Below are positions 42,028-60,727 of a stretch of DNA of 64,000 bases, in pieces. Below the pieces are notes generated by a model. The model was not told the DNA's origin and ran no database searches. It saw only the letters and a program-made list of their open reading frames with translations. The stretch's first letter is position 1. Every line of letters starts with the position of its first letter. A program made the position numbers and the translations under genes. The stretch is from a virus, in the IMG/VR virus record IMGVR_UViG_3300036884_000163, positions 8,950 through 72,949 of that record. One strand, written 5' to 3'.

Positions 42028-45000
42028 TTAGTGGTCCGGGTAAGGACCATGAGTTCCACAGTATGCTCCAGCTGGGCATACATAGCCGTTTTGTGTCATC
42101 GCAGTGTTCATTTGGGTTGTATCGACTCCCTGCGTTTTGTATATGCTTGTTGCGTCATAAGCAAGGTTTGAGAGTGTGAGATTATTCGCCCAAGGTAACG
42201 CCATCAGTGGGCAATTAAACGGGGCATTCCCATTAGGGCACGCGCCTGTGGGGTAGGTAACTGTAGGACTGCTACCCATAAACCCGGAGTACCCAAGACA
42301 GGTTCCGTCTGCTGTCGAAGTCGCGCAGTTAACCGTAGTCGGAAAGTGGTTGGTGCAGTCAGTGACTCCAGCGGGACAACCTACCACACTCCAATTACTC
42401 CCCGTACCTTGGTTCTCTAAAACATTACGATAGAACTGGAAGCTCGCTAGATCCCATGATTGAAATGCAGTCGTTCCTTCGCCCGCCGGAGCCGTGCTAT
42501 AAACATCCGAACTGGCTCCCGTGTCGGTAGTCGCGAAAACATTGTCATGGAAGAAGTTGGAAATCGGCGAGTGCCATGCGCCGAAATTGGTAATTGCGAA
42601 GTTGTTTGGAGAAAGAAACGTGTTGTGCTGGAGTGTTATAAAACGTCCTAATCCGGCACCATTATTGACAAGGCAGTTAGTTATTCCCGGTGCAGGCGCT
42701 GATGTTAAATTGTACTTGACAATCAATCCAATCGTCGCGGTTTCACCAATCGCATAGTTAGCCGTAGTTGATCCCGTCGCATAACCGTTGTCGGCGCAGG
42801 TAGTGTCTCCACCACCTATGTTATGCGCATAAACTCCATCACCGCCGGCAATGGCAATCATCTTCCCCGCCAGCGAGGCAAACGTGAGCGTGCCAGAACC
42901 GATTGCTGTATTACAGGCGGCAAGAGTGCTGCAAACCGTTCCTGGGGTTGATGCTGGGTCGTTGTAAACGATTGTTTGCCCTCCCGTGCCGTCGCTATAG
43001 CCTGCCCATTGTCCACTGGTCCCAGTCATGGCGAACGAACCGGCAGACAGTGCACCGGTATTTGGGCTAGTTCCTACGATGCTACTACCGACTATGATCG
43101 GACACGTCGTCCACGAAGCGCCGCTCGTAATACAAGTGCCAGCCGCAGAAGTGGAGAGTGTCGGGTCAAGACGGATACTGGCGTGCAAGATGGTAACGTT
43201 GTGACTGCTATCGACGGTAATACTCTGGATGTGGGCGGGACTCTTAATGTCGGTCTGGAAGGGGGAACAGTTCGCCGTTACCGTGTATAGGCTGGGCGAG
43301 ACGGTGACGTAGGACATGGCGCAGGTATAGTTATTCCCGTTGCCAGAAGTCCACTGCCACATATGACCGGGCGTGTTGAACTGGTTAGTATCCCCAATAT
43401 TGGTGAACAGGTTGTTGATGAAGTCGTTATGCCCCACGGGCAACGTGGTGCCACCGCCGTTTCCAGTGTTCATGTCGCCACGCCCAATCATCTGCACTGG
43501 ATTCGGAGCATTGCGTATCCAGTTGTTGCTTAATCGCACATTATCAAGGTAAGAGGCAGGTCGTCCTGTAGCCGGATCGAATACTCCTGCCGCTTGTCCG
43601 CCAGAAGTGGCTTCAACAAGCAGTAGGACGGCGAATCCACTCTGCCCGTCCGACCATGTATTTTCTATGATATTTCCATCCACCAAATTACGGTGCCCCT
43701 CTTTCGCCTCAAAACTATTCTTGACGGACCACGGGAAAGGACAAGTGTTATGCGATGCGTACTTGCTTTCGAACGTTCCGCATCCCCAAGGAGGAGCTGG
43801 ACTGTTAGCTGCACCGCCTGTAAGGAGACGCCAATTCAGGTCTCGGCCAAGATAGTTTTTACGGATTTCGTTATCCGACCCCGGTCCGCCATTTTGATCT
43901 GCTGGAGCGCCTCCAGAGAAAAGAGTTTCCGACCCTCCCTCCATCCAGTTGTTCACAATCTTCGTTGGTCCGTTATCGAAGCCGTAGGTGGCAGCCTTTG
44001 TTTCACTAGACCAATGATGAATCTTTTCAATATAACCATTCATTAGCCAGCCATTGTCGATGTTGAACGTAACGCCGGCAGATGAATCGTCTCCGCAGCC
44101 GGGGGTATAGTTTGACGGTGGATTGATTTGAAGATATTGGACCCCTGTTTGCGTTCCTGGTTGGCCGTTGATCGTCAGGACTGTGTTTGAGGTCGTCGGA
44201 TCGAAATCGGAAATCGTGTAGTTGGCTCCGCCGCTGATCGAGCCTCCGGCTCCTGAGGGAAGATTAGACATCGTGCCGCCGATGTTGATTGTCGAAACGG
44301 GACTGACGGTGAACGTGGGGCCGAAAAACGTATTGCCGAACGCGAGGGTGGGAACCGTGCTCGTAAGCGTGACCGAACCATGCGTGCCGTCAGTGTTCGC
44401 CGTAGTGACCGTTCCGGAGTTGTACCATGATAAACAATTTCCGGTCGCATCCACGCTAGATCCAGTCGTTGGTTGGCCAGAATCGCCGGGATCCCATCCA
44501 TGTACGTAGAAGCGGTCGAGTCCAACATAGTTCACCGACAAAGGTGACGCGGGTCGCGTAGCAAGAGGGTTACTTTGTCCGTGGAACAAAACGGGAACAG
44601 TAGAACCGTTCTTGCTTGGAGCCGCCCCTGGCTTCGTTGTGATCTCCACGTCGCGGATGACAATGTGATTGGTAACGTTGGTGGACGTGACCGGATCTAC
44701 GCTCGCCTCAATGCCCGTGTCACCAGTAGCAGGAACAACATCAAGCATCACCGTCCACATGCTCGCTTTGTCGTTGGGAAGCACTCCAGGATTTGTGTGT
44801 CCATCGCATCCGGGGTTACGCGCGCCACCAAAACCTGGAAGTCCGCGACCGCAGGCCATCACGCCAGCAGTGAGAGGAGTTGTTGATTCGAGCGTTAGGC
44901 ATTGCGTGGGTTCTACGCCAGTGCTGGGGTTAGCTTTGCCAGGAAGGCTGATGCAATTACCGTTGTGCACCCCTGCAAAGTCGGATGACGTACAGTGCAA

Positions 45001-46662
45001 CACGGTTCCGGATGGAATCTTGATACGCCACGATTTGTCCAAGTAACCGCCCCCAATGGTGTTTCCACCATTGTCACGCCAGTTATAGCAGGCGTCGAGT
45101 AATCCAGCGGGCGTGAGAGCATAAGCCGCGCCAAGGGCTTCGCCTGCAACGTTTGGCCCATTGTTGACCGACGTTCCAAGAGTCAGGTCAACGTAGTAAG
45201 TTCCCCCAGGCGGATTGCAGACGGTATCGTCTACCCATTTGATTGGGAGCGCAGCGCAAGCGAGCGGGATCCCAAAGCAATCGCCCGAAGAAGGGGGAGG
45301 AGCAGGGCTGCCTACAACCGCTACTAAGTTAATGCCTCCGCTACCCGAAACTGCCGCGAAGCGACCTACTCTTGTGCGTCCAGGGTTTGGCGCGACCTGG
45401 CCGGTGCCGGTAAGGCTAACGGTCTGAGTGCTGCCCCCAACGCCCCCGGAATCGTCCGTCACGGTCAAGGTTCCGGTGCGCGTTCCTGTGGTAGTCGGAG
45501 TGAAGGTCACTGAGATTGTGCAAGAAGGATTAAGGCCTCCTGTCCCGGATAACACACTAGGACAAGTATTCGTCTGGGCAAAGTCACCTGTGATCGAAAT
45601 GGAAGCGATATTCAAATTTGTCGTGCCGCCGTTTGTCAATGTAACCGTTTGACTGAAACTGGTGGTCCCGGTTTGCTGCGCAGCGTAAGTTAATGTATTA
45701 GGTGAAATCGTCGCATAAGAAGTAGTGATTACATATGCAGCGGACGCGACCGCAGAATCTGCAAGGCTGGCGGTCCCAGCCACGGCGTAGAGCGTTTCAC
45801 TTACGTTTACAGTTACGCTTCCTCCGTTTGCAAGCGGTGTGCCCGTTGTGCAATTGATACCGTCCCCAGTGGTCTGCGGATTGGACATTAGGCCATAGCA
45901 AATCAAAGCACCCGTTGTTGAGCTGGTAATCGCAACGCTCAGAGCGCTGGAGGACGTGCCTCCGCCCGGATAAAATGTCGGCGTAGCGGCATTGGAGATT
46001 TCCGTAAAAGCAATCGCGCTCAGGGCGGCTTGCGCGGTGTCCTGCGTCCATGCCGGCGCCGTGCCGCTCGACGTGTTGATGCTCGTGGCAAATCCTGAAT
46101 TGCCGCTGAAATCTTGGTATGTGCTGTAGGGAGACGATACGGCGGTAGGAATACTCCCCCAGATAATTTGATAGATCGCATCGCTCGATCCCGCCAATGT
46201 CAACGTGACTCCGGCGGGACTCGTCGTGTTCGTGGTCTGAGCCCTGGTTGCCGGACTTCCTGTATCCACTATGGCAGAGACGCCAGTGAAAGAAAGTTCC
46301 GTAGCCTCCACCCTCCATGCGAATGTAGTGGTGTCAGTTCGTGTCACCGTGATCGTTGTGGCTCCGCTCGTGCTCGATAGGGTGTAAGCGCAATCCGAAC
46401 CATTGGTTGTGCTCTGGACGCCATAGCAACCGGCGGGGTGAGTGTAAGTGCCTCCGCCGCTGACGCTGACAATCTGTTCCGCGTTGCTTAAAATGCCGAA
46501 CCCTATAACAATGACGTGACCCGATCCTGTACTCGCTACGGTTATGTCGCACGTCGCAGAGGTCGTGACGCAGGTGCCAGAGACAGCATGTTGCACCACG
46601 GCCCACGAGGCCCACGCGGGCGAGCCTATCAGCAGTATCAGCGAAAGTAGAAGTCGTCTCAT
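42028..46662 (-). CDS. giant exported protein: Ig-like domains plus right-handed beta-helix (depolymerase-like)
   Basis: MRRLLLSLILLIGSPAWA; AATPTF.PGGG chitobiase-C-like domain; VTLTNGG..DFAQTNTC..VTFTPT ASH-like domain; KIVNNWMEG, KNSFEAK, DGNIIENTW beta-helix repeats. Confidence 0.75.
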   Translation of the reverse strand: MRRLLLSLILLIGSPAWASWAVVQHAVSGTCVTTSATCDITVASTGSGHVIVIGFGILSNAEQIVSVSGGGTYTHPAGCYGVQSTTNGSDCAYTLSSTSGATTITVTRTDTTTFAWRVEATELSFTGVSAIVDTGSPATRAQTTNTTSPAGVTLTLAGSSDAIYQIIWGSIPTAVSSPYSTYQDFSGNSGFATSINTSSGTAPAWTQDTAQAALSAIAFTEISNAATPTFYPGGGTSSSALSVAITSSTTGALICYGLMSNPQTTGDGINCTTGTPLANGGSVTVNVSETLYAVAGTASLADSAVASAAYVITTSYATISPNTLTYAAQQTGTTSFSQTVTLTNGGTTNLNIASISITGDFAQTNTCPSVLSGTGGLNPSCTISVTFTPTTTGTRTGTLTVTDDSGGVGGSTQTVSLTGTGQVAPNPGRTRVGRFAAVSGSGGINLVAVVGSPAPPPSSGDCFGIPLACAALPIKWVDDTVCNPPGGTYYVDLTLGTSVNNGPNVAGEALGAAYALTPAGLLDACYNWRDNGGNTIGGGYLDKSWRIKIPSGTVLHCTSSDFAGVHNGNCISLPGKANPSTGVEPTQCLTLESTTPLTAGVMACGRGLPGFGGARNPGCDGHTNPGVLPNDKASMWTVMLDVVPATGDTGIEASVDPVTSTNVTNHIVIRDVEITTKPGAAPSKNGSTVPVLFHGQSNPLATRPASPLSVNYVGLDRFYVHGWDPGDSGQPTTGSSVDATGNCLSWYNSGTVTTANTDGTHGSVTLTSTVPTLAFGNTFFGPTFTVSPVSTINIGGTMSNLPSGAGGSISGGANYTISDFDPTTSNTVLTINGQPGTQTGVQYLQINPPSNYTPGCGDDSSAGVTFNIDNGWLMNGYIEKIHHWSSETKAATYGFDNGPTKIVNNWMEGGSETLFSGGAPADQNGGPGSDNEIRKNYLGRDLNWRLLTGGAANSPAPPWGCGTFESKYASHNTCPFPWSVKNSFEAKEGHRNLVDGNIIENTWSDGQSGFAVLLLVEATSGGQAAGVFDPATGRPASYLDNVRLSNNWIRNAPNPVQMIGRGDMNTGNGGGTTLPVGHNDFINNLFTNIGDTNQFNTPGHMWQWTSGNGNNYTCAMSYVTVSPSLYTVTANCSPFQTDIKSPAHIQSITVDSSHNVTILHASIRLDPTLSTSAAGTCITSGASWTTCPIIVGSSIVGTSPNTGALSAGSFAMTGTSGQWAGYSDGTGGQTIVYNDPASTPGTVCSTLAACNTAIGSGTLTFASLAGKMIAIAGGDGVYAHNIGGGDTTCADNGYATGSTTANYAIGETATIGLIVKYNLTSAPAPGITNCLVNNGAGLGRFITLQHNTFLSPNNFAITNFGAWHSPISNFFHDNVFATTDTGASSDVYSTAPAGEGTTAFQSWDLASFQFYRNVLENQGTGSNWSVVGCPAGVTDCTNHFPTTVNCATSTADGTCLGYSGFMGSSPTVTYPTGACPNGNAPFNCPLMALPWANNLTLSNLAYDATSIYKTQGVDTTQMNTAMTQNGYVCPAGAYCGTHGPYPDH

Positions 46663-47354
46663 TATGGTTTCAACTCGATTGCGGCCGCTTTCCAAACGCC
46701 AGTAGTTTGAGTCGCCGTACAATCTATCGTGGCCGGCGAAGCGGACGTGTTATCGACGAGCACTCCGTTATTTGCGGTAGTGGTCACCGCCTGACGTGGA
46801 GTTCCAACCGTCACCGTCATTACGTGGGTCGCACCGTCACCCAGTCCGCAGACTATGTAATCGTTGCTATAGGATGTAGCCACGGCAATATCCGCCGTCG
46901 TGCTACTTCCATTGTTGACGCTTCCCGAACCCACCACGGCAGTAACCCCGGAATACCCTTCTTCCACTACAAAGCCGGTTCTCGCCGTAGTCCAGGATAA
47001 GATATAACTCGTGACTCCAGAAGGAACCGATGCTTGATAGAGGGACGCAAGAGGAGAGACTGCCGGACCCACGCTTAGAGCATTGCTCAGATTATCGACC
47101 CCACTCAGCGCGGTTATTGAGCTGCTGGTGTAAAGATAGATAATCGAAGTGCTTCCAGTGGCAGGCGACGGAGAGGGTGTGACTGTTACTGTTGAGTTTG
47201 AGGTAAACGTGGCCGCATATCCGTTGATCGCAGGCGTGATTGTTCCACCACCGCCCGCCACCGGTGGTTTAGAACCCACCACGCTTAGCCACTGAAAGCC
47301 AGATCCAATTGCAATCAGCACTGCCAACGAAATGATGATTCCAAGTTTTCTCAT
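46662..47354 (-). CDS. exported beta-sandwich protein
   Basis: MRKLGIIISLAVLIAIGSG; domain resembles the N-terminal domain of 42028-46662. Confidence 0.65.
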   Translation of the reverse strand: MRKLGIIISLAVLIAIGSGFQWLSVVGSKPPVAGGGGTITPAINGYAATFTSNSTVTVTPSPSPATGSTSIIYLYTSSSITALSGVDNLSNALSVGPAVSPLASLYQASVPSGVTSYILSWTTARTGFVVEEGYSGVTAVVGSGSVNNGSSTTADIAVATSYSNDYIVCGLGDGATHVMTVTVGTPRQAVTTTANNGVLVDNTSASPATIDCTATQTTGVWKAAAIELKP

Positions 47355-47355
47355 G

Positions 47356-50300
47356 TTAGCTGCTCGTCGATGTGCCGGCTAAGGTCGTACATTTCAGACT
47401 GTAGGCCGAAGCACCAGTCTGAAACGAGAAACAGGAGAATGAGTTCCCAATTCCTGGAGTGGCGAAGATGATATGAGTCACTCCGGATGCAGAACCATCG
47501 AGGTATATATTCGCTGCGGTCGTGCCATTTGTGACCGAATTATATTGCCAAGCATAAGCTCCGGGAGCCGTGCCGACGATCATAATAAAATTCATGCCCG
47601 CCGCTGGCGTCGGACCCGTGATCGCTACCGCAGCCGTCGTCTGACCATAGTTCCATGCCATCGCATTCGAAAGTTGCGCTGCGGTCGGACTGCAAGCCGT
47701 ATGACAGTCGATGGATTGTGGAGTGACAGATGCGGTAGTCAACGTAGGGGAGGTCGAAGGCGCTTTGGCGTTGAGTTGTGTTTGAATGCTAGATGTAGGA
47801 TCGACATAACCCATGACCGTCGAAGTCACGCCGTCCACCGTTTTGTTGGTTAAGACCTGTGTGTCAGTCGTTCCAACGATTGTTCCCGTGGGGGCCGCGA
47901 CGGACGAGGTAATCGTATTCGCTGTTGCCGCGACTGGGATCTGCGTTGCCGTCATTCCAGAGAGTCCGCTGCTGCCGGCCGCGCCGAATGGCCCCACGGT
48001 TCCACCATTGATTCGGGCATACATTCCAGCAGTAGTGGTCCATAAGTCTCCGTTTACTGGGCTAGTAGGTGCGGAACCATGCGGAACATTTAATCCAGTA
48101 GTCGTAGTAGTAGATGCAGCCGTTACAACTTCTGCGGTGTGGGTTTGCACCGCTGTCCAAGTCGCCGCCCGACCGAGAAACCCAGCACAACCAAAATTAT
48201 GCACTACAGCGGATCCATCGCTGTACTCGGCGCTAAAACAATGGTTCGTTGAATCAAACGTGGTTTCGTGCGTAAAAATTGGCAATGTCGTGTCTAGTGC
48301 GCCTTCGGTGGCCAAGTCGTAGGGAGGAGTTCCACCTGAATTTCCTGTGATTGGCGTACCCTCAGAAAACGAAGTCGTGGAGGCTAGGGTCGAGAAAAAG
48401 CCTGGCGCCGGAGTTGTTCCACCGATTGTTGGCGGCGCAGCGTAGCTTTGCGTTGCGAAGGTTCCAAACGCCACATTGTTGGTTTTGGTGCAGGTAGCGA
48501 CGCCCGTGCTGGCGAGCGTGCAGTCTTGGCTCAGGGCCGTTGGCGCATAAGCGGTTCCACCAGAATTTCCAACCGCCAGGTAGCCTGCCCCCGGCGCGGT
48601 GTTTGGCATGACTGCGGCCTTCGTCTGCGCGTCGTTGGTTACGCTGCTCAGGCCGACAGACGTTTTCGTAACCGAGATCGCGCCCGCCGTATTTAGGACG
48701 CTGGTGCCATCCGGCTTGACGCCGCCCAAAACAGATGCAGTGGCCGTCGGCAGCGAGTAGAGCGCCGCGAAGGCCCCTGTGTTCAAAGCTCCCGACGCTG
48801 ACGGTTTCTGGCCGTGCGTTCCGTCTGCAACCATTGGCACCTCTGCGGTTGTTCCCGGATCAGAGGAGGTCGCCGTGCCCGCTGCAGAACCAAACACCGT
48901 TAGCGTCGTTGCCCAGGCCGTGCAAGGCGTTCCTATACAAACTGGAACTCCTGGTGTGGTGGGCCACGTCATCGCGCTACCGGAGGATCCGCAGCCTGTT
49001 CCGGTGGATAAAATCACGCCTGAAGAAACATTGAGGCAACCATTCGACAAGCTGGCTAGCGTAACACTCTGATCGAACTTCGCCGGAACGTTGAACTCTT
49101 TCAGCGATGCGGTCAACCTTTCCAGCCAGTTTGCGGTTACGCCATCGCCAACCTGCGCGATGTAATTCGTAATTGACACCGGGGCTCCAAACGCAAGCTG
49201 CCCCGAACTCAGTCCCACTCCGGCGCTCGGCACATCCGTGCCAATCCACGTATCGTTCGCACTTGCTGGTGGACGATACCCCCACGTTGCTTGAGTCAGG
49301 GCAGGCTGGGAATCAATCAGTGTGATGATATGGTGTGGATTTAGGCCCGGGGTAAACAGGGAAAAATTCAGTCTTCCTTTTGCTAAGACCGAAAAGGAAT
49401 TATGGGGGTTATTGTCCTGCAAGAACGTGGCGGTGGCGTTAGGGATGCTATTATTCGTGGTATTGATACTCGACAAACAAACTGTAGCTCCTCCTGGCGA
49501 CGCTGCTCCGTAGACCGAGCACCGATTCGCAACCTGAATCGGATCTCCATACAATCCAATTCCTACGACGTTCCCTACTTCCACATCTACCTTAACAGTT
49601 TTGTTGACCGCTACTATTGAACCGGGCCAGAAGTTTAATTGTCCTGCATAATTCCCAGCCTTAATCGTGTATGCGGAAGTGGATGACGATCCTGTATCAG
49701 TGTAAGTACAAACCAACGTCCCCGAACAAGCCGTGGCTTGAGATAGGTTGTGCGCCACATATCCGCACGTCCCACCCGATCCACCGGGGCATCCGCCATT
49801 GTAGGGATAGACTGCACCGACTCCAACCGGAGTTGTCATGCGGATTACGTCATAGGTGATCGTGTCAGTTCCGTTTGCCACTCGCGGCCAACTAACCGGA
49901 ATTGAATCGCTTCCGGTAGAACTCCAATTGAGAATCTGCATCGGAGAGGTTTGCGTATTGGCAGTCGTATCATTGGCTACGATGTAATAGGTGTATGGCG
50001 TAGCGCCAGCTGCCGTTCCGAACACCGTCCCTGCGGTTAAAACAGAGCTTGTCGTCAACTGAAAAGTGCTGGAATTGCTTGCAGTGACTGACCAAGTACC
50101 GTTGTACCCTGATGGAGTCATTCCGGTTATGGCTACGTTGTTTGTTCCTGTGCCGGGATTCAGTGTTGACGTTATTGTGATCGTGTAAGTAGGGCCACCA
50201 CCAGATTCACTGGCTGCCGTGATCGCGGCACTGGAGACGCCAGCCTGAAACGCACCCTCAGGTGCCGGTCCGGCAATCTGAAAATTTGCATTTAGGGTCG

Positions 50301-52746
50301 ATTCTCCGGCAATCAAACCAGCAATTCCAAGACCAGGAAAGGGAGACTCGGCAGCGGAGCACGAGGATGGATAGCTACTACAAGGCGGATTGGCGGCAGC
50401 GCTGCTCTCGGAGTAGATGTTCTTAAGGTAGGCTCCCTGATAGTTTCCGGTGGAGTTCGATGAATACACTTGCCACAACGAGGTGGCCTGAATGACTGTG
50501 TTCTCGATGTACAACCCGTTCGAATTATAGACGGTTATTCCTAGTTGTTGAGAAGTGATGTTCGAGTCGCGCAGCGTGATGACCGAAGCGTGATTATGCG
50601 CTATGTTCATCTGGCCACCCGAGAAGACATAGGAACCGATCCACGTTGCACCACCGTTTAATCCCGCGCTATTGTTATTGAAGTGGTCAACGGTCGCGTT
50701 CTCGTCATCCCAGAAATCGAAGAAATTATTGAATGCACCGTTCTCTCCTACAAGGTCGCCAGAAATATCGTTAAAGTGTGTACCGTTTGCATTGTCCAAA
50801 ATCGCTTCATAAGCTAAGGCAACGACTCCGGGAGTATTCATGGAAACGGGCGCTCCGGGATGTGCGTAAGTATAGGTCACACTCGACGGCACGGACGTAA
50901 TAACGGCATCTCCCCAATAAGTTGAGCTGTCCGTAAACATCTGCGTAACTATGTCACCCGGACGAAATCCGTGGGCGGATGCCGTGGTGATTGTAGCAAT
51001 GCCGCCAGAGAAGGATGTGTTGGTAATGTTTACGCCAGCATATGCGGCGATAGATGAGTGATCGGTTGGAGTACGGAAACTGATGCCTTGAATGGTGTTA
51101 CTTACAAAATCATTGGCGTTTACGCGATCGCCGACCTGGATACAAGCTCCACGCCCAACGCAATTCAGGGAGGTTCCATATCCGCTCAGTGTAGACTGGT
51201 TAGCGTGGACGAAGATCGTGCCGTAAACGTTGTAGTTGTTTATTGAATGCGGATAGCCTGGACCGTTCGCAGGAATTGTTACATTGCATTGGGCGTTCTT
51301 GTAGTACGTTGGGTCGGTACCGCAAGCGACGTTGACCGTTTCCTGAATGCCAGAAGAGGCCGAACCGATTGTGTAGGCAGAGTGTGAGAAGAAGGGCGTG
51401 AAGAGAATGGTCCCTCCACTCCCCGCGGTATAAGTGCCACCCGTCACGTTCACTGCTTCGCTATTTGAACCATCCGTGATGTAGACCTGATAGCCAGCGC
51501 CCGAACTCACGTCAATGCCAACGATTCCCGAAGCAAGAGTCACAGTTGCCGCCGTATTCGCCGTGAGCGCCGTAGTCGAAGATTTCGACCAGTTCATCGC
51601 CGATGTCACGTAGGCGGTGGGGGGATTAGGACATTCCACACTGACATTCGGAGCCGACTGCTGAAACAGGCAGTTAAAATAGCCAGTCTGCGGTGCGGGC
51701 GTTGCAGCGTTCAGGTTGGCCGCCGACTGCGATACGCTGTTTACGCTGAAGGGGAAGCTACCAGGCGAAGGAACTGGGATCCATGTCTGGTTGCCAGCAA
51801 GAATCGTAGCCGAGTTCGCCGCGCCACTGCCTAGTTGAGCCGTGGGCACATACCCACCGACCAGGCTCGCCTTGGCGGCTAAACCGGTGTCCACATATCC
51901 CTTGTTGCTTGCGTGGTTAATCGCCGTAGGGTTCCCTGGCAGCGTGATCGGACCTGTGACCGTTCCCCCGACGAGCGATAGATAAGAGCCGCCCGAGCCA
52001 GGGGCGAACTGGCTAGCGAGATTCCCTACCGGGCACCCAAGCGAGATGTCGCCAGTCGTATCCGTAGCGAAGTTGCAGTTCAGAAATCCCGCGCCAAAGA
52101 GTGGCAGAACGTTGTTGAAGTTCGCCACCGGGACGGTGCTCCCAAGCGGGACGCTGTTCACGCTGATGTTCGCCGCCCCTACGACACCGACGCCCAATCC
52201 GATGACGGTCGCCTGCGAGAAGTCGAAGAGGCCTTTAAAGAATGCCGAGGTGCCGGTTGGCTGCGTCCAAGTCTGGCTGTTGATGGGATTGCCGAAGAGT
52301 TGATAGAAGCCGGGAGGCGGGGGAATCACGGTGCACGGCTGCGTCAGGGCAGGATTGAAGGTGTCGCCGCTCGTCAGGCAGTAATACTCCGGCTGTCCGC
52401 CGGCTTGGTTGCTCGCTTTGTACTCGGTTACGAGCCACTGGGTAGAGTTCACGTTCCCACAAAGGATTTGGTCTTGCCCGTAAACACTACCAGCGATTAG
52501 ACCTGTGGTCGGATTAGGACGCATATCGAACTGCTGCGCGACGATGGCAAAGGCATTTCCTTGTACCTGGGGGACGTTATTTCCACAGTTCCACAGTTCG
52601 AAGTGGAGATAACCGGTCTTTTGAATGTTGCCCTGGCCGTCGGTAAGCGTTGCTGTGACGGTGACGCCGGGAGCTTGAGCGTAGGCGCACACTCCAAGCG
52701 TTAGCAGGGTGATAGCCGATAACGCCTTGAGTAACAATGCACGCAT
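47356..52746 (-). CDS. tail fibre / tailspike-like protein with N-terminal signal peptide (ORF extends to 52899)
   Basis: Fibre motifs GGTVTGPITLPGNP...NKGYVD, LPTATASVLGGVK, VGLSSVTN, TQVLTNKT, SSIQTQLNAK; central beta-helix. Confidence 0.75.
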   Translation of the reverse strand: MRALLLKALSAITLLTLGVCAYAQAPGVTVTATLTDGQGNIQKTGYLHFELWNCGNNVPQVQGNAFAIVAQQFDMRPNPTTGLIAGSVYGQDQILCGNVNSTQWLVTEYKASNQAGGQPEYYCLTSGDTFNPALTQPCTVIPPPPGFYQLFGNPINSQTWTQPTGTSAFFKGLFDFSQATVIGLGVGVVGAANISVNSVPLGSTVPVANFNNVLPLFGAGFLNCNFATDTTGDISLGCPVGNLASQFAPGSGGSYLSLVGGTVTGPITLPGNPTAINHASNKGYVDTGLAAKASLVGGYVPTAQLGSGAANSATILAGNQTWIPVPSPGSFPFSVNSVSQSAANLNAATPAPQTGYFNCLFQQSAPNVSVECPNPPTAYVTSAMNWSKSSTTALTANTAATVTLASGIVGIDVSSGAGYQVYITDGSNSEAVNVTGGTYTAGSGGTILFTPFFSHSAYTIGSASSGIQETVNVACGTDPTYYKNAQCNVTIPANGPGYPHSINNYNVYGTIFVHANQSTLSGYGTSLNCVGRGACIQVGDRVNANDFVSNTIQGISFRTPTDHSSIAAYAGVNITNTSFSGGIATITTASAHGFRPGDIVTQMFTDSSTYWGDAVITSVPSSVTYTYAHPGAPVSMNTPGVVALAYEAILDNANGTHFNDISGDLVGENGAFNNFFDFWDDENATVDHFNNNSAGLNGGATWIGSYVFSGGQMNIAHNHASVITLRDSNITSQQLGITVYNSNGLYIENTVIQATSLWQVYSSNSTGNYQGAYLKNIYSESSAAANPPCSSYPSSCSAAESPFPGLGIAGLIAGESTLNANFQIAGPAPEGAFQAGVSSAAITAASESGGGPTYTITITSTLNPGTGTNNVAITGMTPSGYNGTWSVTASNSSTFQLTTSSVLTAGTVFGTAAGATPYTYYIVANDTTANTQTSPMQILNWSSTGSDSIPVSWPRVANGTDTITYDVIRMTTPVGVGAVYPYNGGCPGGSGGTCGYVAHNLSQATACSGTLVCTYTDTGSSSTSAYTIKAGNYAGQLNFWPGSIVAVNKTVKVDVEVGNVVGIGLYGDPIQVANRCSVYGAASPGGATVCLSSINTTNNSIPNATATFLQDNNPHNSFSVLAKGRLNFSLFTPGLNPHHIITLIDSQPALTQATWGYRPPASANDTWIGTDVPSAGVGLSSGQLAFGAPVSITNYIAQVGDGVTANWLERLTASLKEFNVPAKFDQSVTLASLSNGCLNVSSGVILSTGTGCGSSGSAMTWPTTPGVPVCIGTPCTAWATTLTVFGSAAGTATSSDPGTTAEVPMVADGTHGQKPSASGALNTGAFAALYSLPTATASVLGGVKPDGTSVLNTAGAISVTKTSVGLSSVTNDAQTKAAVMPNTAPGAGYLAVGNSGGTAYAPTALSQDCTLASTGVATCTKTNNVAFGTFATQSYAAPPTIGGTTPAPGFFSTLASTTSFSEGTPITGNSGGTPPYDLATEGALDTTLPIFTHETTFDSTNHCFSAEYSDGSAVVHNFGCAGFLGRAATWTAVQTHTAEVVTAASTTTTTGLNVPHGSAPTSPVNGDLWTTTAGMYARINGGTVGPFGAAGSSGLSGMTATQIPVAATANTITSSVAAPTGTIVGTTDTQVLTNKTVDGVTSTVMGYVDPTSSIQTQLNAKAPSTSPTLTTASVTPQSIDCHTACSPTAAQLSNAMAWNYGQTTAAVAITGPTPAAGMNFIMIVGTAPGAYAWQYNSVTNGTTAANIYLDGSASGVTHIIFATPGIGNSFSCFSFQTGASAYSLKCTTLAGTSTSS

Positions 52747-52898
52747 TCTAATGAGGCGCCCATGCGCCCGAGCTTCCACCGAACGACACCGCGCGCAGCA
52801 GAAGACACCAGTCGTTTGCCCTGGCGAGCCCTCTGTGTCCACGTGACCGAACAATCGGCACAACACAATGAGCGCTAACGCCTTGAGAGTAGGTCGCA

Positions 52899-53123
52899 TC
52901 AGTCTTCCGCGTGCTCGAGCACCACGACGTTCTCCGCCTTCAGGCCCTTCTCGCCTTTGGTAACATCAAACTCCACCACGTCACCCTCGGTGAGTTTGCG
53001 GTAGCCCTCGGCTTGGATGGCGCTAAAGTGAACAAAAGCTTCTCGGTTGCTGCCATCATCCAAAATCAGAAAGCCGTATCCCTTAGCGTTGTTAAACCAC
53101 TTGCAAATGCCTCGTTCTGCCAT
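52899..53123 (-). CDS. cold-shock protein (CspA family)
   Basis: KWFNNAKGYGF (RNP1), AFVHFSAIQ (RNP2). Confidence 0.93.
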   Translation of the reverse strand: MAERGICKWFNNAKGYGFLILDDGSNREAFVHFSAIQAEGYRKLTEGDVVEFDVTKGEKGLKAENVVVLEHAED

Positions 53124-55582: not shown

Positions 55583-55591
55583 GTGCTCATT

Positions 55592-56452
55592 ATGAATCGC
55601 TTAGGAAGCGAAACGAGAGCACAAGTGATTAACTGCTTGATCGAAGGTTGCTCGATCAGGTCCACCGTCCGAATGACCGGCGTTGCCAAGAAAACCGTCA
55701 TGCGGCTGCTGGTGGAAGTTGGCGACGTTTGCGCCGACTACCAGGACAAGGCGTTCCACAATCTCAACTGCCGCCGTCTGCAACTTGATGAAATGTGGGG
55801 CTGGATCTACTGCAAAGCCAAAAACCGAACGGAAGAAATAGCCAAGAACAATCCCGACGCTGGCGACGTTTGGCTCTGGGTTGCCGTGGATGCCGATACC
55901 AAACTCGTTCCCTGTTGGACGCTTGGAAGCCGCGATGCTCACACAGCCAAGGATTTTGTCGATGACCTTGCAAGCCGCTTGAAGAATCGCGTCCAGATCA
56001 CCAGCGACGGGCATCGTCCCTACATTGAAGCGATTGAAAACGCCTTTGGCGATGACGTTGACTACTCGATATTGCAGAAAATCTACGGCGCGCCCTTGGA
56101 AACCGAGACGCGCTACTCTCCCGCTCGTTGCATCGGTATTGACGTGCGGCCCGTCACCGGCGATCCAGACCCCAAGCACATTTCGACAAGTTTTGTAGAG
56201 CGCCAGAACTGGACGGTTCGCGGAAGAATGCGCCGGTACACGCGCCTGTCTAACGGCTTTTCGCGCAAGATGCGGAACCACGCCGCGGCAACCGCCCTCA
56301 ATTACTTTGCCTACAACTTCATTCAGATTCACAGGACGATCCGTATGTCCCCCGCGATGGCAGCCGGAGTGACTGACAGGCTGTGGAGCGTCGAAGACTT
56401 GGTTGCATTGTGGGAGTCCTACGAAGCCAACCAAGCACCCATAGCGGCATAG
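55592..56452 (+). CDS. IS1-family DDE transposase
   Basis: N-terminal HTH; QLDEMW, WVAVDADTKL, ITSDG, STSFVERQN..R..RRYTRL..GFS. Confidence 0.92.
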   Translation: MNRLGSETRAQVINCLIEGCSIRSTVRMTGVAKKTVMRLLVEVGDVCADYQDKAFHNLNCRRLQLDEMWGWIYCKAKNRTEEIAKNNPDAGDVWLWVAVDADTKLVPCWTLGSRDAHTAKDFVDDLASRLKNRVQITSDGHRPYIEAIENAFGDDVDYSILQKIYGAPLETETRYSPARCIGIDVRPVTGDPDPKHISTSFVERQNWTVRGRMRRYTRLSNGFSRKMRNHAAATALNYFAYNFIQIHRTIRMSPAMAAGVTDRLWSVEDLVALWESYEANQAPIAA

Positions 56453-56471
56453 GGCTGATAAAATTTCAGCC

Positions 56472-57233
56472 ATGTCTGATGCCTTTGAGAGTTCCCGGCG
56501 CAAGATCGCAAGGGCTGAAAAACACTTTGCCGATCTTAAGCGGGAAATCGACGAGTTCGAGCAATCCGACCCATACATGAGAGTGATTGAGCCGGACCCA
56601 AAGCATCTGGACCATCAAGTTCACAAGATCAAGCTGACTCAGCCCCTTCCAGTGTCCGTCGCCGATATTACTGGCGATATCGTGATAAACCTTCGCAGTG
56701 CTCTCGACAACGCTGGGTACGAGGTGGCGGTCGCGTCCGGCGTCGTCAATCCGAAAAACTCCGCTTTCCCTTTCGCCGGGAGCGTTGACAAAATGGCAAA
56801 TGCTCTCGGGAGGTCCAAGGATATACCTCAGCAAATCCAGTCTCTCTTTTGCGGGTTCCAGCCTTACCCAGGAGGGGATGATCTTCTTTGGGCGCTCAAC
56901 GAAATATGTAACACCGACAAACACAAAATGCTGATTCCCGTTGGGCACGCAATCTTCCCCACCCACCAAGCTGCTCATTGCGTTGGGTACATGAGCATTC
57001 CCGAACCCCATGTTTGGGACAGCAGAAAAAACGAGATGGAGCTTATTACCATCGGACCCGGTACAAAGTTCGACTACGAGTTCAATTTCCGCATCTTCGT
57101 AGCGTTTGGCGAAATCAAGGTTGTGGAAGGCAAGGAAGTCCTTAGAATCCTGTACAGAATGGGCTGCAAAATCCAAAGCCTCTTGATGGCTATTGAACTT
57201 GAGTCTCGCCGTCTCGGGTTTATCAAGGGATAA
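56472..57233 (+). CDS. IS1 passenger protein, possibly HEPN-like
   Basis: KIARAEKHF..NLRSALD..FPF..LNEICNTDKH; stop overlaps the right IR. Confidence 0.65.
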   Translation: MSDAFESSRRKIARAEKHFADLKREIDEFEQSDPYMRVIEPDPKHLDHQVHKIKLTQPLPVSVADITGDIVINLRSALDNAGYEVAVASGVVNPKNSAFPFAGSVDKMANALGRSKDIPQQIQSLFCGFQPYPGGDDLLWALNEICNTDKHKMLIPVGHAIFPTHQAAHCVGYMSIPEPHVWDSRKNEMELITIGPGTKFDYEFNFRIFVAFGEIKVVEGKEVLRILYRMGCKIQSLLMAIELESRRLGFIKG

Positions 57234-57592: not shown

Positions 57593-57667
57593 TTTCCGTT
57601 CGATCAACTAGCTACTTTGGGCAACAATTTACTTGACACACAAAGGTAGTTGATACACAATAGGGGT

Positions 57668-58624
57668 ATGGAAAACGAAGCCAAAACCCCTAAAACCCTG
57701 CAAGAAGCCATTGTATTCTTCTCCGATCCTGACCGCGCTTTGGCCTTCGCCATGATTCTGCGCTGGCCCGATGGCAAGATCACCTGCCCGCGTTGCGGCT
57801 TCGATCAGCACTCGTTTATTTCCAGCCGTCGCATCTGGTTCTGCAAGGGATGTAAGAAGCAGTTCACTATCAAGGTCGGGACGATCTTCGAGGATTCCCC
57901 GCTAGGCATGGACAAGTGGATGACCGCCGTTTGGCTGGTTGCGAATTGTAAGAATGGCGTGAGCAGCTACGAGATCGCCCGCGATCTGGGGATCACGCAA
58001 AAGTCGGCTTGGTTTATGATGCACCGCGTCCGCAACGCAATGCAATCCGGCTCATTCGGTAAGCTGTCCGGGGAGATAGAAGCAGACGAAACTTTCATCG
58101 GAGGCAAGTCCCGCAACATGCACGTTGCCCAGCGCCAGCGCCGAATCACTGGCACCGGCGGCAAAGATAAAACTGCGGTCATGGGCATCTTGCAGCGTGG
58201 CGGAGAGGTTCGTACCAAGGTGATCTCAAGCCGGAAGAAGAAGGAACTGCAATCTGAGGTTCGGAAGCATGTCGAAGCGGGATCGGCGCTCTACACCGAT
58301 GCGCTTATGTCCTACGAGGGGCTGGCAACCGACTACGCGCATCAAGTCGTAGACCATGCCGTTCAATACGTGAATGGTCGCGTTCACACGAACGGTCTTG
58401 AGAATTTCTGGTCGCTGTTCAAGCGGGGGATCGGCGGAACCTACGTCTCAGTTGAGCCGTTCCACTTGTTCCGATACTTGGATGAGCAAATGTTCCGCTA
58501 CAACAACCGCAAAGAAATGAACGATGCGGATAGATTCCAAGCTGTCATGGGTAACGTCACTGGGCGTCGGCTCACTTGGAGGGAACTGACTGGCAAGATG
58601 GAGGGCGGGACATGTGTTAACTGA
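57668..58624 (+). CDS. IS1595-family transposase
   Basis: RWPDG..CPRCG..CKGC Zn ribbon; EADETFIGG, LYTD, VHTNGLENFWS, YLDE..FRYN. Confidence 0.95.
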   Translation: MENEAKTPKTLQEAIVFFSDPDRALAFAMILRWPDGKITCPRCGFDQHSFISSRRIWFCKGCKKQFTIKVGTIFEDSPLGMDKWMTAVWLVANCKNGVSSYEIARDLGITQKSAWFMMHRVRNAMQSGSFGKLSGEIEADETFIGGKSRNMHVAQRQRRITGTGGKDKTAVMGILQRGGEVRTKVISSRKKKELQSEVRKHVEAGSALYTDALMSYEGLATDYAHQVVDHAVQYVNGRVHTNGLENFWSLFKRGIGGTYVSVEPFHLFRYLDEQMFRYNNRKEMNDADRFQAVMGNVTGRRLTWRELTGKMEGGTCVN

Positions 58625-58663
58625 GAAGGAAAAGCAGAGGCAAAAACGTGGGAGCAGGCAGGG

Positions 58664-58825
58664 TTAAATTCCGGCTTTCTTAATTTTCCGGTGAGTCGGC
58701 TTCGAGTCTTGTGATTCCGACTTCGGAACGCGGAACAGTGCTTTCATTGTTCGCGTGAAATTGTCGAATGCTTTCTGGCCTTCCTCGATTTCCAGCTTAC
58801 GCCGCGTATGCGGTTCTGATTTCAT
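58664..58825 (-). CDS. small convergent IS-associated protein (not in the ORF track)
   Basis: MKSEPHTRRKLEIEEGQKAFDNFTRTMKALFRVPKSE... Confidence 0.55.
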   Translation of the reverse strand: MKSEPHTRRKLEIEEGQKAFDNFTRTMKALFRVPKSESQDSKPTHRKIKKAGI

Positions 58826-58954
58826 TTCGTTCACCGATGGCCTATAATCCTAGCCGGATCATCCTGTTCATTCTTGGCGGAAGGTCTAGAGTGATCCCCT
58901 ATCTGCGAGCCCTCAATATATGTGTGACTACAGGTTAATCCTAGGGTACCATGG

Positions 58955-59758
58955 GTGGCCAAAATGTCGCAGCCAATTTTTTTCCGCGTAGGAACTGAGC
59001 GCCAAATCGATCTCTCCACGTTCGTGGATTCTGTCCGAGATTTTCTATACATCCTCAAAGATGTGGACGCCACCCTCTCTGAAAAATCCCATGGAAGCGT
59101 GAAATGGATGGTCGAAGTGCTAGAGAAGCCCGATGCTGCAGTAGTTGGCGTTTTACCCATCCCTCGCAAACCATTATTTGATCGAAGTTCTGCGGTGAAA
59201 TCGCAGGTGATTGAGAACACCAGCCTATTGTCTACAAAAGGTGAAAGAAACAAATTCTTTTCTGATGGTGCACTTTCGCATGTAGGTAAGCTGGCGAACC
59301 GAACGCCGAAAATTGGTCCGATGGCGATTTGGACGCCGCAAAACGGACGGCCAAAACAGGAGAGTGAAATTTCTCAAGCCACGCTCCGAAATGTCGAGGA
59401 ATTGACTGGCCCAAAGTATTCTGGCTTTGGCTCTGTTACTGGAAGTTTAGATGCGATTTCTGTTCACCGAGGAGCTGAATTTCGCATTTGGGACAAGGAA
59501 AGTGGAAAGCCAGTTCGATGCTTCTTTAAGCCTGATTTCGAGGGGAAGGTGAAGGATTCTCTTCGCAAGGTCGTGGTTGTAACTGGGGAAATGCTGATGA
59601 ACAGTGCAGGCAACCCACTTTCAATAAAGGTAGACGATTTAGAAGAGGCTCCACCAAGAGCCGATCTGGTACCAATACAGAGTCTGTCAGGAATTATCAA
59701 GGATTTCACTGGCGGGGTGTCTTTGAAGAAATACCTAGAGGAATCTGCCGATGAGTGA
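58955..59758 (+). CDS. PIN-associated protein with OB-fold-like C-terminus (putative antitoxin/partner)
   Basis: Overlaps the PIN gene by 8 nt; GSVTGSL..FRIWD..VRCFF..VVVTG beta pattern. Confidence 0.6.
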   Translation: MAKMSQPIFFRVGTERQIDLSTFVDSVRDFLYILKDVDATLSEKSHGSVKWMVEVLEKPDAAVVGVLPIPRKPLFDRSSAVKSQVIENTSLLSTKGERNKFFSDGALSHVGKLANRTPKIGPMAIWTPQNGRPKQESEISQATLRNVEELTGPKYSGFGSVTGSLDAISVHRGAEFRIWDKESGKPVRCFFKPDFEGKVKDSLRKVVVVTGEMLMNSAGNPLSIKVDDLEEAPPRADLVPIQSLSGIIKDFTGGVSLKKYLEESADE

Positions 59759-60362
59759 TTTCCGTAAACTATATTGGGATACGACATGTTTTATTTGTTT
59801 TCTCAACGATAGCGACCATGAGAGGGAGCGGCACTATATCTGTGAAGATATACTCCAGCACTCCGCAAACGGTACTGCTGAAATTTGGACCTCATCCTTC
59901 ACCATCGCAGAAGTGATACGCCCACGAGACAAGTTCATCGCGAAGCCACTTCCAAGCTGGACCGATGCGGTATTGGAGAAATTCCCACAAGTGGAAATCC
60001 CTCTTCGGAATTTATGGAACTTCCACATCCAAAGGACGCGACCGACACGTCTGCTCACGAAAAAAGAGATGGATGGAATAAGCCAACTTCTACATCCTGA
60101 CCGAATACACACGATTAAACTTGATGATCGGATCGCTGCATCGGCAGTTGAGATTTCTCGCAATTATGGACTCAAACCTGCCGATGCGATTCATGCGGCC
60201 TCAGCCATAGACCTGCACAAGCGTAAGAAAGTTGAGGTGCTTCAGCACTGGGATAAGGACTACGACAAACTTAAGGATTTGATTCCGGTGGAATTTCCAA
60301 CCAGAATTTCACCACAACATGCCTTCAAGGAATTTATTAAACCGTTGGGTGAGTCTGGATAA
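59751..60362 (+). CDS. PIN-domain (VapC-like) ribonuclease
   Basis: Acidic tetrad YWDT, IAEV, PADAIHAASA, WDKD. Confidence 0.85.
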   Translation: MSDFRKLYWDTTCFICFLNDSDHERERHYICEDILQHSANGTAEIWTSSFTIAEVIRPRDKFIAKPLPSWTDAVLEKFPQVEIPLRNLWNFHIQRTRPTRLLTKKEMDGISQLLHPDRIHTIKLDDRIAASAVEISRNYGLKPADAIHAASAIDLHKRKKVEVLQHWDKDYDKLKDLIPVEFPTRISPQHAFKEFIKPLGESG

Positions 60363-60372
60363 TTTGGGGAAG

Positions 60373-60489
60373 TGGTCGGGATACCGGGAATTGAACCCGG
60401 ACGGGTTGCCCCAGCAGTTTGGCTAGCGGCCCTTCGCCTTATAAGGACAGCTAACAAACTGCCGCGTCTGCCAATTCCGCCATATCCCG
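60373..60489 (-). ncRNA. tRNA-Leu-like RNA with a 39-nt anticodon loop region (117 nt)
   Basis: Acceptor CGGGATA/TATCCCG-A-CCA, D-arm GCGGAATTGGCAGACGC, anticodon stem GCAGT/ACTGC, variable arm GGG-GCAA-CCC, T-arm CCGGG-TTCAATT-CCCGG; TAGAAT -10 at 60503-60498. Confidence 0.85.
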
Positions 60490-60575
60490 ATCTCTTAATT
60501 CTACCTCACTTGTTCTGGGGGAGGATAACTAACCTATTTTCGGTATCAGGGTTGTGCGTCAAGTAAGTTGTTGCC

Positions 60576-60727
60576 CTACTTTGGTGCTTTCTATCTTTTT
60601 GCTTGGCCCAGCGGACCTGGGCCGCATGGCGGGCACTCTCTTTGCGCTGTTTAGGCGTCAATTTCTTGTTCGTCGCTTCGGCGCCGCGCCGACCGATCTT
60701 CGCGAGATAATCTCGAACCGTTTCCAT
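60576..60727 (-). CDS. small basic protein hit by IS1595 in its last codons
   Basis: METVRDYLAKIGRRGAEATNKKLTPKQRKESARHAAQVRW; the original stop is restored at 57608-57610 when the IS is removed; now reads through to 60506. Confidence 0.65.

Follow-up and report, generated by a model that had tools for sequence, protein, structure and literature searches.

A tRNA-Leu-derived gene with a hairpin in place of its anticodon loop, carried beside a VapC-type PIN nuclease gene on an IS1595-family transposon in a viral genome: a candidate non-decoding tRNA mimic

Genes for allo-tRNAs occur in soil and sediment metagenomes, mostly in acidobacterial sequences, and often lie near toxin-antitoxin (TA) systems (PMC5389517; repeated in PMC7609411). 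In the first of these studies, Mukai et al. 2017, an allo-tRNA pseudogene overlaps a transposon open reading frame (ORF) in an Edaphobacter strain, and polycistrons of irregular tRNAs are present in peat and forest metatranscriptomes, some of the RNAs being charged and unused in translation (PMC5389517). Why irregular tRNAs lie near TA systems or transposons in soil Acidobacteria has been unexplained since 2017. Here we describe a tRNA-Leu-derived gene of 117 nt whose anticodon loop is replaced by a hairpin, found in a 64,000-nt stretch of viral DNA (hereafter the window; positions 8,950 to 72,949 of IMG/VR record IMGVR_UViG_3300036884_000163, with a terminase large subunit gene at 6340-8040 of the window). 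The gene is cargo of an IS1595-family transposon that also encodes a VapC-like PIN-domain nuclease and a conserved partner protein, orf267. The irregular, TA-associated acidobacterial tRNAs of Mukai et al. are the closest precedent, and the likeness lies in the setting: Acidobacteria, peat or forest soil, and non-canonical tRNA genes beside TA genes or transposon ORFs. The bodies differ, since those RNAs have an 8/4 or 9/3 acceptor/T-stem configuration with extra loops or odd anticodons, whereas the gene described here has a normal 7/5 tRNA-Leu body. We therefore refer to its product as a tRNA-like RNA and not as an allo-tRNA, a term tied to the 8/4 or 9/3 configuration in PMC5389517.

The nuclease beside the gene belongs to a class with a documented taste for tRNAs. 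VapC toxins cleave tRNA anticodon loops, that of tRNA-Leu included; 11 of the 12 Mycobacterium tuberculosis VapCs tested cut specific tRNAs, and VapC11 cuts two tRNA-Leu species (PMC5175351). For certain phage tRNAs, single-base differences within the anticodon loop have been proposed as a means of escape from VapC, PrrC or colicins (van den Berg et al. 2023, PMC10264068). Considering the anatomy of the locus, we tentatively favor a functional role for the tRNA-like RNA, as a tRNA mimic that does not decode and acts as a partner of the PIN nuclease. A literature search, conducted mostly outside subscription journals, returned no description of an architecture combining an IS1595 passenger, a tRNA mimic and a PIN nuclease.

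The gene and the features that define it are the following.

60373-60489, minus strand: tRNA-Leu-derived gene, 117 nt, with an encoded CCA and without an anticodon loop (Rfam, ARAGORN, folding and host comparison)
60414-60462, minus strand: expanded anticodon arm, a 49-nt near-continuous hairpin replacing a 17-nt stem-loop (fold of -24.6 kcal/mol)
60498-60503, minus strand: -10-like hexamer TAGAAT, 8 nt before the 5' end of the tRNA-like gene (read from the sequence)

An earlier reading of this DNA, made from its letters alone (the sequence-only reading), had reported a tRNA-Leu body with a hairpin-extended anticodon arm at 60373-60489. These coordinates stand, to which we add what that reading had not seen: the gene lies on the minus strand, with its 5' end at 60489 and its CCA at 60375-60373, in a transposon and next to a PIN gene. 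The observation is corroborated by a match to RF00005, the Rfam tRNA family, which reaches 43.3 bits where the gathering score is 29 and covers the full model (positions 1-71) with about 33 nt inserted at the anticodon loop, as well as by type-II features and a helix in place of the loop. RF00005 is the sole family found, with no other Rfam match when either the 64,000-nt window or the insertion sequence (IS) was scanned. In its default mode ARAGORN called zero tRNAs in the window and in the whole 72,949-bp contig, while its intron mode produced an 85-nt type-II cloverleaf with a 32-nt 'intron', called Gly(GCC), and forcing the intron to position 37/38 changed the call to Asn(GUU). Any 32-nt excision yields only GCC, GUC or GUU, none of which is a Leu anticodon (NAG or YAA), and the earlier statement that no Leu anticodon is possible thus agrees with the Gly(GCC) and Asn(GUU) calls of ARAGORN.

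All four cloverleaf stems are intact and the CCA is encoded, as had been claimed and as the intron-mode cloverleaf confirms. The acceptor stem has 7 bp, starts with C1-G72 and is followed by A73 and the CCA; the D stem has 3 bp with a G.A closing pair, the anticodon stem 5 bp, the variable arm 13 nt, and the T stem 5 bp with a UUCAAUU loop. Where a decoding tRNA has a 7-nt loop with a triplet, this gene has 39 nt between the stem strands, folded as a helix. The long variable arm, the Leu-type D-arm and A73 together define a type-II tRNA-Leu body. For comparison we used genuine tRNA-Leu genes from the two element-bearing bacterial genomes. The tRNA-like gene has exactly the D-arm of the host tRNA-Leu(UAG) (GCGGAAUUGGCAGACGC), one base off those of the host tRNA-Leu(CAG) genes, and G26, the 13-nt variable arm with its GCAA loop and A73-CCA are common to the tRNA-like gene and the host genes; the long variable arm and A73 are among the Leu-type features that the sequence-only reading had listed as retained. 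The acceptor, anticodon, variable-arm and T stems differ from host tRNA-Leu, and each difference is a paired change, which indicates that the gene is no recent host copy and that its cloverleaf is nevertheless still perfect. A search of the phage collection gave matches of 24-25 nt to annotated phage tRNA-Leu genes, in the D-arm only. The retained D-arm, variable-arm and A73 features are regarded as determinants for leucyl-tRNA synthetase (LeuRS), an enzyme that ignores the anticodon. The kept tRNA-Leu body fits a chargeable, non-decoding mimic, which may be leucylated.

The insert that replaces the 7-nt loop comprises 39 nt (60419-60457), exactly as first described, and only the fold drawn for it was slightly off. 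In the minimum-energy fold, U32, U33 and G34 also pair, with C, A and A opposite, giving an 8-bp stem (GCAGUUUG/CAAACUGC), continued past a bulged C by five pairs and past a U.C mismatch by six more that close an 8-nt loop. At -24.6 kcal/mol, the 49-nt arm has a z-score of -4.6, with none of 200 shuffles as stable, and the whole tRNA-like RNA has a z-score of -4.55. An alternative pairing of the arm involves UU opposite the CAA stretch. With its anticodon loop sealed in a hairpin of about 19 pairs, the RNA is unable to read a codon. The 8-nt apical loop (A-U-AAG-G) was considered as a displaced Leu anticodon loop and rejected, as a variant of the gene in the locus L002 has a GAAA tetraloop there. 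The TAGAAT hexamer, previously noted 8 nt upstream, is confirmed at 60503-60498 of the minus strand; a sigma-70 consensus scan of this region called no full promoter, because a -35 match is absent.

The transposon that carries the gene is delimited by the following features.

57620-60575, unstranded: complete IS1595-family element, 2,956 bp, with the tRNA-like gene as cargo (near-identical copy, inverted repeats, duplications)
57612-57619, unstranded: left 8-bp target-site duplication, CTACTTTG (direct repeat)
60576-60583, unstranded: right 8-bp target-site duplication, CTACTTTG (direct repeat)
57619-57643, plus strand: left terminal inverted repeat, 25 nt (repeat search; 92% complementary to 60552-60576)
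60552-60576, minus strand: right terminal inverted repeat, 25 nt (pairs with 57619-57643, 92%)
57650-58624, plus strand: IS1595-family DDE transposase, 324 aa (Pfam DDE_Tnp_IS1595 at 1.6e-41 and Zn_ribbon_IS1595; NCBIfam transpos_IS1595 at 4e-54)

Members of the IS1595 family generate 8-bp target duplications. The element belongs to this family by its transposase, its terminal inverted repeats and the 8-bp duplications seen in two copies at different sites. The second copy is on L001, a contig of an Acidobacteriaceae metagenome-assembled genome (MAG), which is 99.93% identical to the window over a 2,965-bp block (57612-60576) with unrelated flanks; this copy is bounded by a different duplication, CTACCTAG (approximately at L001 864-871 and 3827-3834). 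Contigs from peat metagenomes join the right IS end to both kinds of flank, and no variants of the tRNA-like gene were found among them, these being DNA contigs that are uninformative on transcripts. The tRNA-like gene is thus foreign to the phage backbone and is transposon cargo, and the element has been recently mobile, having inserted in a phage or prophage of a peat Acidobacterium. Its cargo consists of orf267, the PIN gene and the tRNA-like gene. The last two converge, the PIN stop codon and the 3' end of the tRNA-like gene being 10 nt apart, and no terminator was called between them.

Several side observations concern the insertion itself. Both CTACTTTG and CTACCTAG fit CTACNTNG, a hint of target-site preference. 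The IS apparently inserted into the 3' portion of a phage ORF (60506-60985 and 57365-57607, both minus strand): a 159-aa phage ORF now ends inside the IS, and when the element and one duplication are excised in silico, the junction is bridged by an open frame of 153 codons, counted from stop to stop. In run X14, a 937-nt contig matches only 60546-60584, with 4 differences, and is unrelated on both sides, which suggests that the same community holds related IS ends at other places.

The two protein-coding cargo genes form an overlapping pair.

58955-59758, plus strand: orf267, conserved partner protein without a family, 267 aa (upstream of PIN in 57 of 65 loci; AlphaFold2 model)
59751-60362, plus strand: VapC-type PIN-domain nuclease, 203 aa; the first 8 nt of its gene overlap the end of orf267 (Pfam PIN, 1.5e-10)

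The PIN protein combines a PIN fold with conserved acidic residues, as expected of a PIN toxin: D10, E54, D145 and D168 are invariant in 32 homologues, and its AlphaFold2 model, with a predicted local distance difference test (pLDDT) score of 90.9, matches VapC toxins at Z 11.2-13.8 in the first 17 structure matches, a result with which Foldseek agrees. The protein carries an insert of about 60 residues. It has no PADLOC or NCBIfam match, and a sequence search of solved structures gave only a weak VapC match; its closer homologues as proteins, P0002-P0007, are 66-79% identical. An assignment to the HARP-type RNase P was dropped as the less likely one, since Aquifex HARP (7f3e) reaches Z 8.3 at rank 23, below 19 VapC-like matches, and HARP is absent from the top Foldseek rows for the PIN model.

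The partner, orf267, has no Pfam, NCBIfam, PADLOC or Protein Data Bank sequence match, and in the Protein Atlas it appears only among unnamed hypothetical-protein clusters. Its AlphaFold2 model (pLDDT 89.9) has two parts, an alpha/beta domain at the N terminus, for which no match was found, and an OB fold at the C terminus (about residues 152-234). The OB fold resembles single-stranded DNA-binding proteins (SSBs), MCM N-domains and the N-terminal domains of asparaginyl- and aspartyl-tRNA synthetases (AsnRS and AspRS), one of them titled anticodon-binding domain, at Z 6-7.8, values within the range of 6-8 that is usual for the best match of models without a clear match. Foldseek returned weak matches to lysyl-tRNA synthetase (LysRS; the best), SSB and TiaS chains. 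The OB fold being a nucleic-acid-binding one, the model supports nucleic-acid binding, though no particular specificity; we rejected a specific anticodon-binding domain, the LysRS, AsnRS and AspRS chains being few among many generic OB-fold matches.

To place the cassette in a wider context, we collected 65 PIN loci, 7 from a genome scan and 58 from a metagenome scan, with carriers that include Acidobacteriota, a Sphingomonas MAG and a SAR202 MAG. In 57 of them the gene immediately upstream of PIN is orf267. Among the other eight, seven contigs start inside the PIN gene, and the eighth, L065, has a truncated PIN. An IS1595-type transposase is upstream in 27 of the 65 loci. The locus L002, from a Terriglobales MAG, has 1,654 bp in common with the window at 96% identity, corresponding to orf267, PIN and the tRNA-like gene, while identity between the two transposases is only 34%. 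The similarity ends about 35 nt upstream of the RNA, and L002 has TAAAAT at the spacing of TAGAAT. Loci L015-L019 are not independent of L002, because they align to it over their full length at 97-100% in the same context. No relatives were found in viral contigs by DNA pattern, PIN protein or alignment, and no PIN relative in plasmids; among 401 species genomes of the host phylum, a PIN homologue is present in one, which is G001 itself.

Separately from these counts, L065 carries a group II intron (L065:1755-1824, minus strand; Rfam, 44.8 bits) beside its PIN homologue, which is without the first approximately 98 residues, and this cassette may be interrupted. Downstream of the cassette in L005, at a distance of about 2 kb, the Acido-Lenti-1 RNA motif gave a sub-threshold match (L005:4445-4501; 31 bits, with a gathering score of 37). 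Two loci, L004 and L005, have 'tRNA-Cys' calls upstream of the cassette, which were discarded as poor models.

The window and L002 are not the only loci in which a tRNA or tRNA-like gene follows a PIN homologue. Of the 65 loci, 55 extend at least 300 nt beyond the PIN gene; these reduce to 40 non-redundant groups, four of which have such a gene, namely the types of the window and of L002, together with L027 and L071. A fifth case, L006, has only 209 nt downstream and falls outside the 40 groups. In L006, from the Sphingomonas MAG (PIN 38% identical), a convergent tRNA of 43.1 bits lies 66 nt after the PIN stop and has a type-I body, an encoded CCA, a 25-nt anticodon loop, a 6-nt T loop and a 3:70 mismatch. 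The convergent tRNA of L071 lies 83 nt past the end of the PIN match, scores 56.7 bits and combines a type-I body, G3:U70 and A73 with a 27-nt anticodon loop and a TATAAT 9 nt upstream. Its arm forms, as in the window, an 8-bp stem through U32, U33 and G34 (z = -2.1), and a clear hairpin with a U-run stands between the tRNA-like and PIN genes. Expanded anticodon loops have recurred after PIN homologues on two unrelated tRNA bodies, those of L006 and L071. The loops of the window, L006 and L071 all begin N-U-G-U, and those of L006 and L071 are alike, although three cases are too few to define a motif. L027 has a normal-sized convergent tRNA (L027:3501-3573, minus strand; 68.1 bits) about 200 nt after the PIN stop, with TATGAT upstream, a type-I body and the anticodon loop CUACUAA, hence the anticodon ACU. 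This anticodon is not a standard one in bacteria, and the gene looks like a tRNA of the Arg(ACG) type altered at position 36; it is possibly a missense-type irregular tRNA attached to the same cassette family. Candidates called by relaxed ARAGORN after other PIN genes had poor stems and were treated as noise. Bacterial genomes have roughly one tRNA gene in every 100 kb, so that four of 40 groups, together with L006, are far above chance, and anticodon-loop expansions are rarer still.

The comparison between the window and L002 also allowed us to ask how the RNA has changed relative to its neighbors. Of 322 synonymous sites in the coding genes, 19 have changed (pS = 0.059), next to 6 non-synonymous changes, while the tRNA body and proximal stem differ by one change in 95 nt (binomial P = 0.022; Fisher P = 0.036). 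The sole other difference in the RNA is at the hairpin tip, where 22 nt become 18 nt and the 8-nt loop becomes the GAAA tetraloop; both versions fold alike, with z-scores of -4.6 in the window and -4.5 in L002. The tRNA-like gene thus appears constrained in sequence, with modest support for selection (P = 0.02). The contrast of 1/95 with 19/322, the re-paired tip, the linkage within the cassette and the two analogues all support the earlier opinion that the gene is not simply decaying.

Taken together, these observations suggest how a non-decoding mimic might work. The tRNA-like gene is, beside orf267 and PIN, the third component of a mobile cassette for which IS1595-family transposons serve as carriers. 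Its -10-like box would drive transcription, and the RNA would mature as tRNAs do and might be leucylated. The simplest mechanism would be substrate mimicry: the RNA would offer the acceptor, T and D body recognized by a tRNA-cleaving VapC without offering a cleavable loop. With a closed helix where the cut would fall, it could act on the PIN nuclease much as RNA antitoxins do, titrating or regulating it in the role of decoy, inhibitor or regulator, and the OB fold of orf267 may contact the hairpin arm. Several points weigh against this proposal. We know of no TA system that uses a tRNA mimic as its RNA antitoxin, limited literature searches having returned none, and orf267 occupies the position expected of a protein antitoxin. 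By Rfam and ARAGORN, 36 of the 40 non-redundant PIN groups have no tRNA-like gene downstream, which implies that the protein pair works without the RNA. The arm of L006 is unstable (z = +0.4), so the sealed hairpin is not universal, and only two Leu-type sequence variants exist, which makes covariation statistics impossible and keeps the selection test modest. It is possible, if doubtful, that the locus is something more specific: a three-part, transposon-borne TA-like module in which a sealed-arm, tRNA-shaped RNA is the antidote or bait for a VapC-type tRNase, orf267 reads the arm, and such RNAs have arisen more than once from tRNAs with anticodon-blind synthetases (Leu here, Ala-type with G3:U70 in L071).

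Other explanations account for part of the evidence. The gene could be a hitch-hiking pseudogene, a captured host-type tRNA-Leu whose loop was killed by a palindromic insertion and which is too young to have decayed. Its inability to decode would be expected of such a relic, as would the absence of any tRNA from most PIN cassettes; with two variants known, the apparent conservation could partly reflect youth, and the allo-tRNA pseudogene of Mukai et al. offers a parallel in that it overlaps a transposon ORF (PMC5389517). We nevertheless consider it unlikely: there are zero stem mismatches although all stems differ from the host by paired changes, which speaks for a gene that is old relative to any host gene and still folds, and the RNA has fewer changes than synonymous sites, a hairpin tip altered with its pairing kept, a retained -10-like box and independent analogues in the same position. 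The close convergence of the RNA and PIN genes, 10 nt apart with no terminator called, and the convergent orientation of all cases found bring to mind a cis or antisense role, in which the RNA promoter and a stable 5' domain would drive or stabilize a transcript into the PIN 3' end and so tune PIN expression. This we judge quite unlikely, as it leaves the tRNA-Leu identity features, the encoded CCA and the expanded arms unexplained, and as a hairpin and U-run separate the tRNA-like and PIN genes in L071.

Two further accounts take the tRNA body more literally. Ala and Leu synthetases ignore the anticodon, and both the kept tRNA-Leu body with A73-CCA and the G3:U70 and A73 of L071 would suit a charged carrier acting off the ribosome, with the leucylated RNA serving as an aminoacyl donor or sink, or titrating LeuRS or elongation factor Tu (EF-Tu). 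Irregular charged tRNAs unused in translation are indeed documented (PMC5389517). The IS contains no aminoacyl-transferase-like gene, its only ORFs with a family or fold being the transposase, orf267 and PIN, and the 3:70 mismatch and 6-nt T loop of L006 fit efficient charging poorly, so that we regard this explanation as highly unlikely. The weakest account, to which we give hardly any credence, is an intron-containing tRNA from which a 32-nt excision would leave a Leu-accepting tRNA with GUU, GUC or GCC, a mistranslating or toxic product. The sequence-only reading had offered it as an alternative to the mimic, and it can draw on the intron-mode models of ARAGORN, the N-U-G-U with which the loops of all three analogues start, the adjacent PIN nuclease and the missense-suppressor-like irregular tRNAs reported near TA systems (PMC5389517). 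It loses its footing in the predicted folds, where no bulge-helix-bulge (BHB) motif was found, that is, two 3-nt bulges with a 4-bp helix between them at the splice sites, but instead a single bulged C and a U.C mismatch, and where U33 and G34 are base-paired. The insert, at 32 nt, is far too short for self-splicing or for a group I intron, which has a catalytic core of about 200 nt or more matching Rfam intron models; no intron family matched in the window or the IS even at E <= 1. The splice point is itself undefined, because three anticodons are equally possible. Finally, the carriers are Bacteria, in which we know of no tRNA splicing endonuclease.

Beyond the element, the same phage stretch seems to accumulate mobile elements. 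Left of the IS, at 55583-57233, lies a second transposase-like gene, of 289 aa, with weak IS1, IS240 and rve DDE matches, and beside it a 253-aa ORF without a family. Two very large minus-strand ORFs are also present in the virus record, at 42028-46722 (1,564 aa) and 47356-52899 (1,847 aa).

The locus is a defined, testable unit, consisting of a 3-kb element with exact ends and three cargo genes. If the RNA controls the nuclease as a mimic, it would add both a novel way to control a toxin and a novel use of the tRNA fold, and insertion sequences would be able to spread such modules into phage genomes. Should the sealed-arm RNA be an antidote or bait, it would define a new class of RNA antitoxin that acts by substrate mimicry. 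Even an inert gene would still document that insertion sequences acquire and move tRNA-derived genes.

Compared with known systems, the protein pair resembles VapBC, with which it shares a PIN fold and acidic site and a two-gene operon with overlapping frames and an upstream partner. VapB antitoxins are small DNA-binding proteins, whereas the upstream partner here is a 267-aa OB-fold protein without a family; moreover, the PIN protein has its insert of about 60 residues, and a tRNA-shaped RNA gene is attached. HARP (PIN_5; PMC10941002) is likewise a PIN-like nuclease, with about 200 aa, a helical insert and tRNA-shaped substrates, and its hallmark is a split PIN_5 domain with a spike helix; Aquifex HARP is, however, a far weaker structural match to the PIN protein (Z 8.3) than VapC toxins are. 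The phage tRNAs thought to evade nucleases (PMC10264068), with which PARIS and the T5 tRNA (PMC11464382) can be grouped, also involve a mobile or viral tRNA gene, a loop unlike the host form and a tRNA-cleaving nuclease; they keep a 7-nt loop and decode, whereas the RNA described here, without an anticodon, cannot stand in for a tRNA that has been depleted. The BHB-intron pre-tRNAs of Archaea and eukaryotes resemble it in that extra nucleotides lengthen the anticodon arm, as in the 32-nt intron of the ARAGORN model, and differ from it in that the present gene has no BHB geometry, bacterial carriers and no splice point giving a cognate anticodon. The tRNA-like domain of tmRNA, the Y RNA YrlA and the Bacillus cereus tRNA-Other, which PMC5389517 cites, are recognized by tRNA enzymes and do not decode. 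Unlike these, our RNA keeps the D, variable and T arms and a free CCA, has no sequence resemblance to them and matches only the tRNA family in Rfam. As for the irregular tRNAs of Mukai et al., a hairpin-replaced anticodon loop does not feature in the text of PMC5389517 consulted here, and an overlap is possible with the five-stem-junction forms in its supplementary figures; what sets the present locus apart from them is a defined IS1595-type element and its partner genes, orf267 and the VapC-like PIN nuclease.

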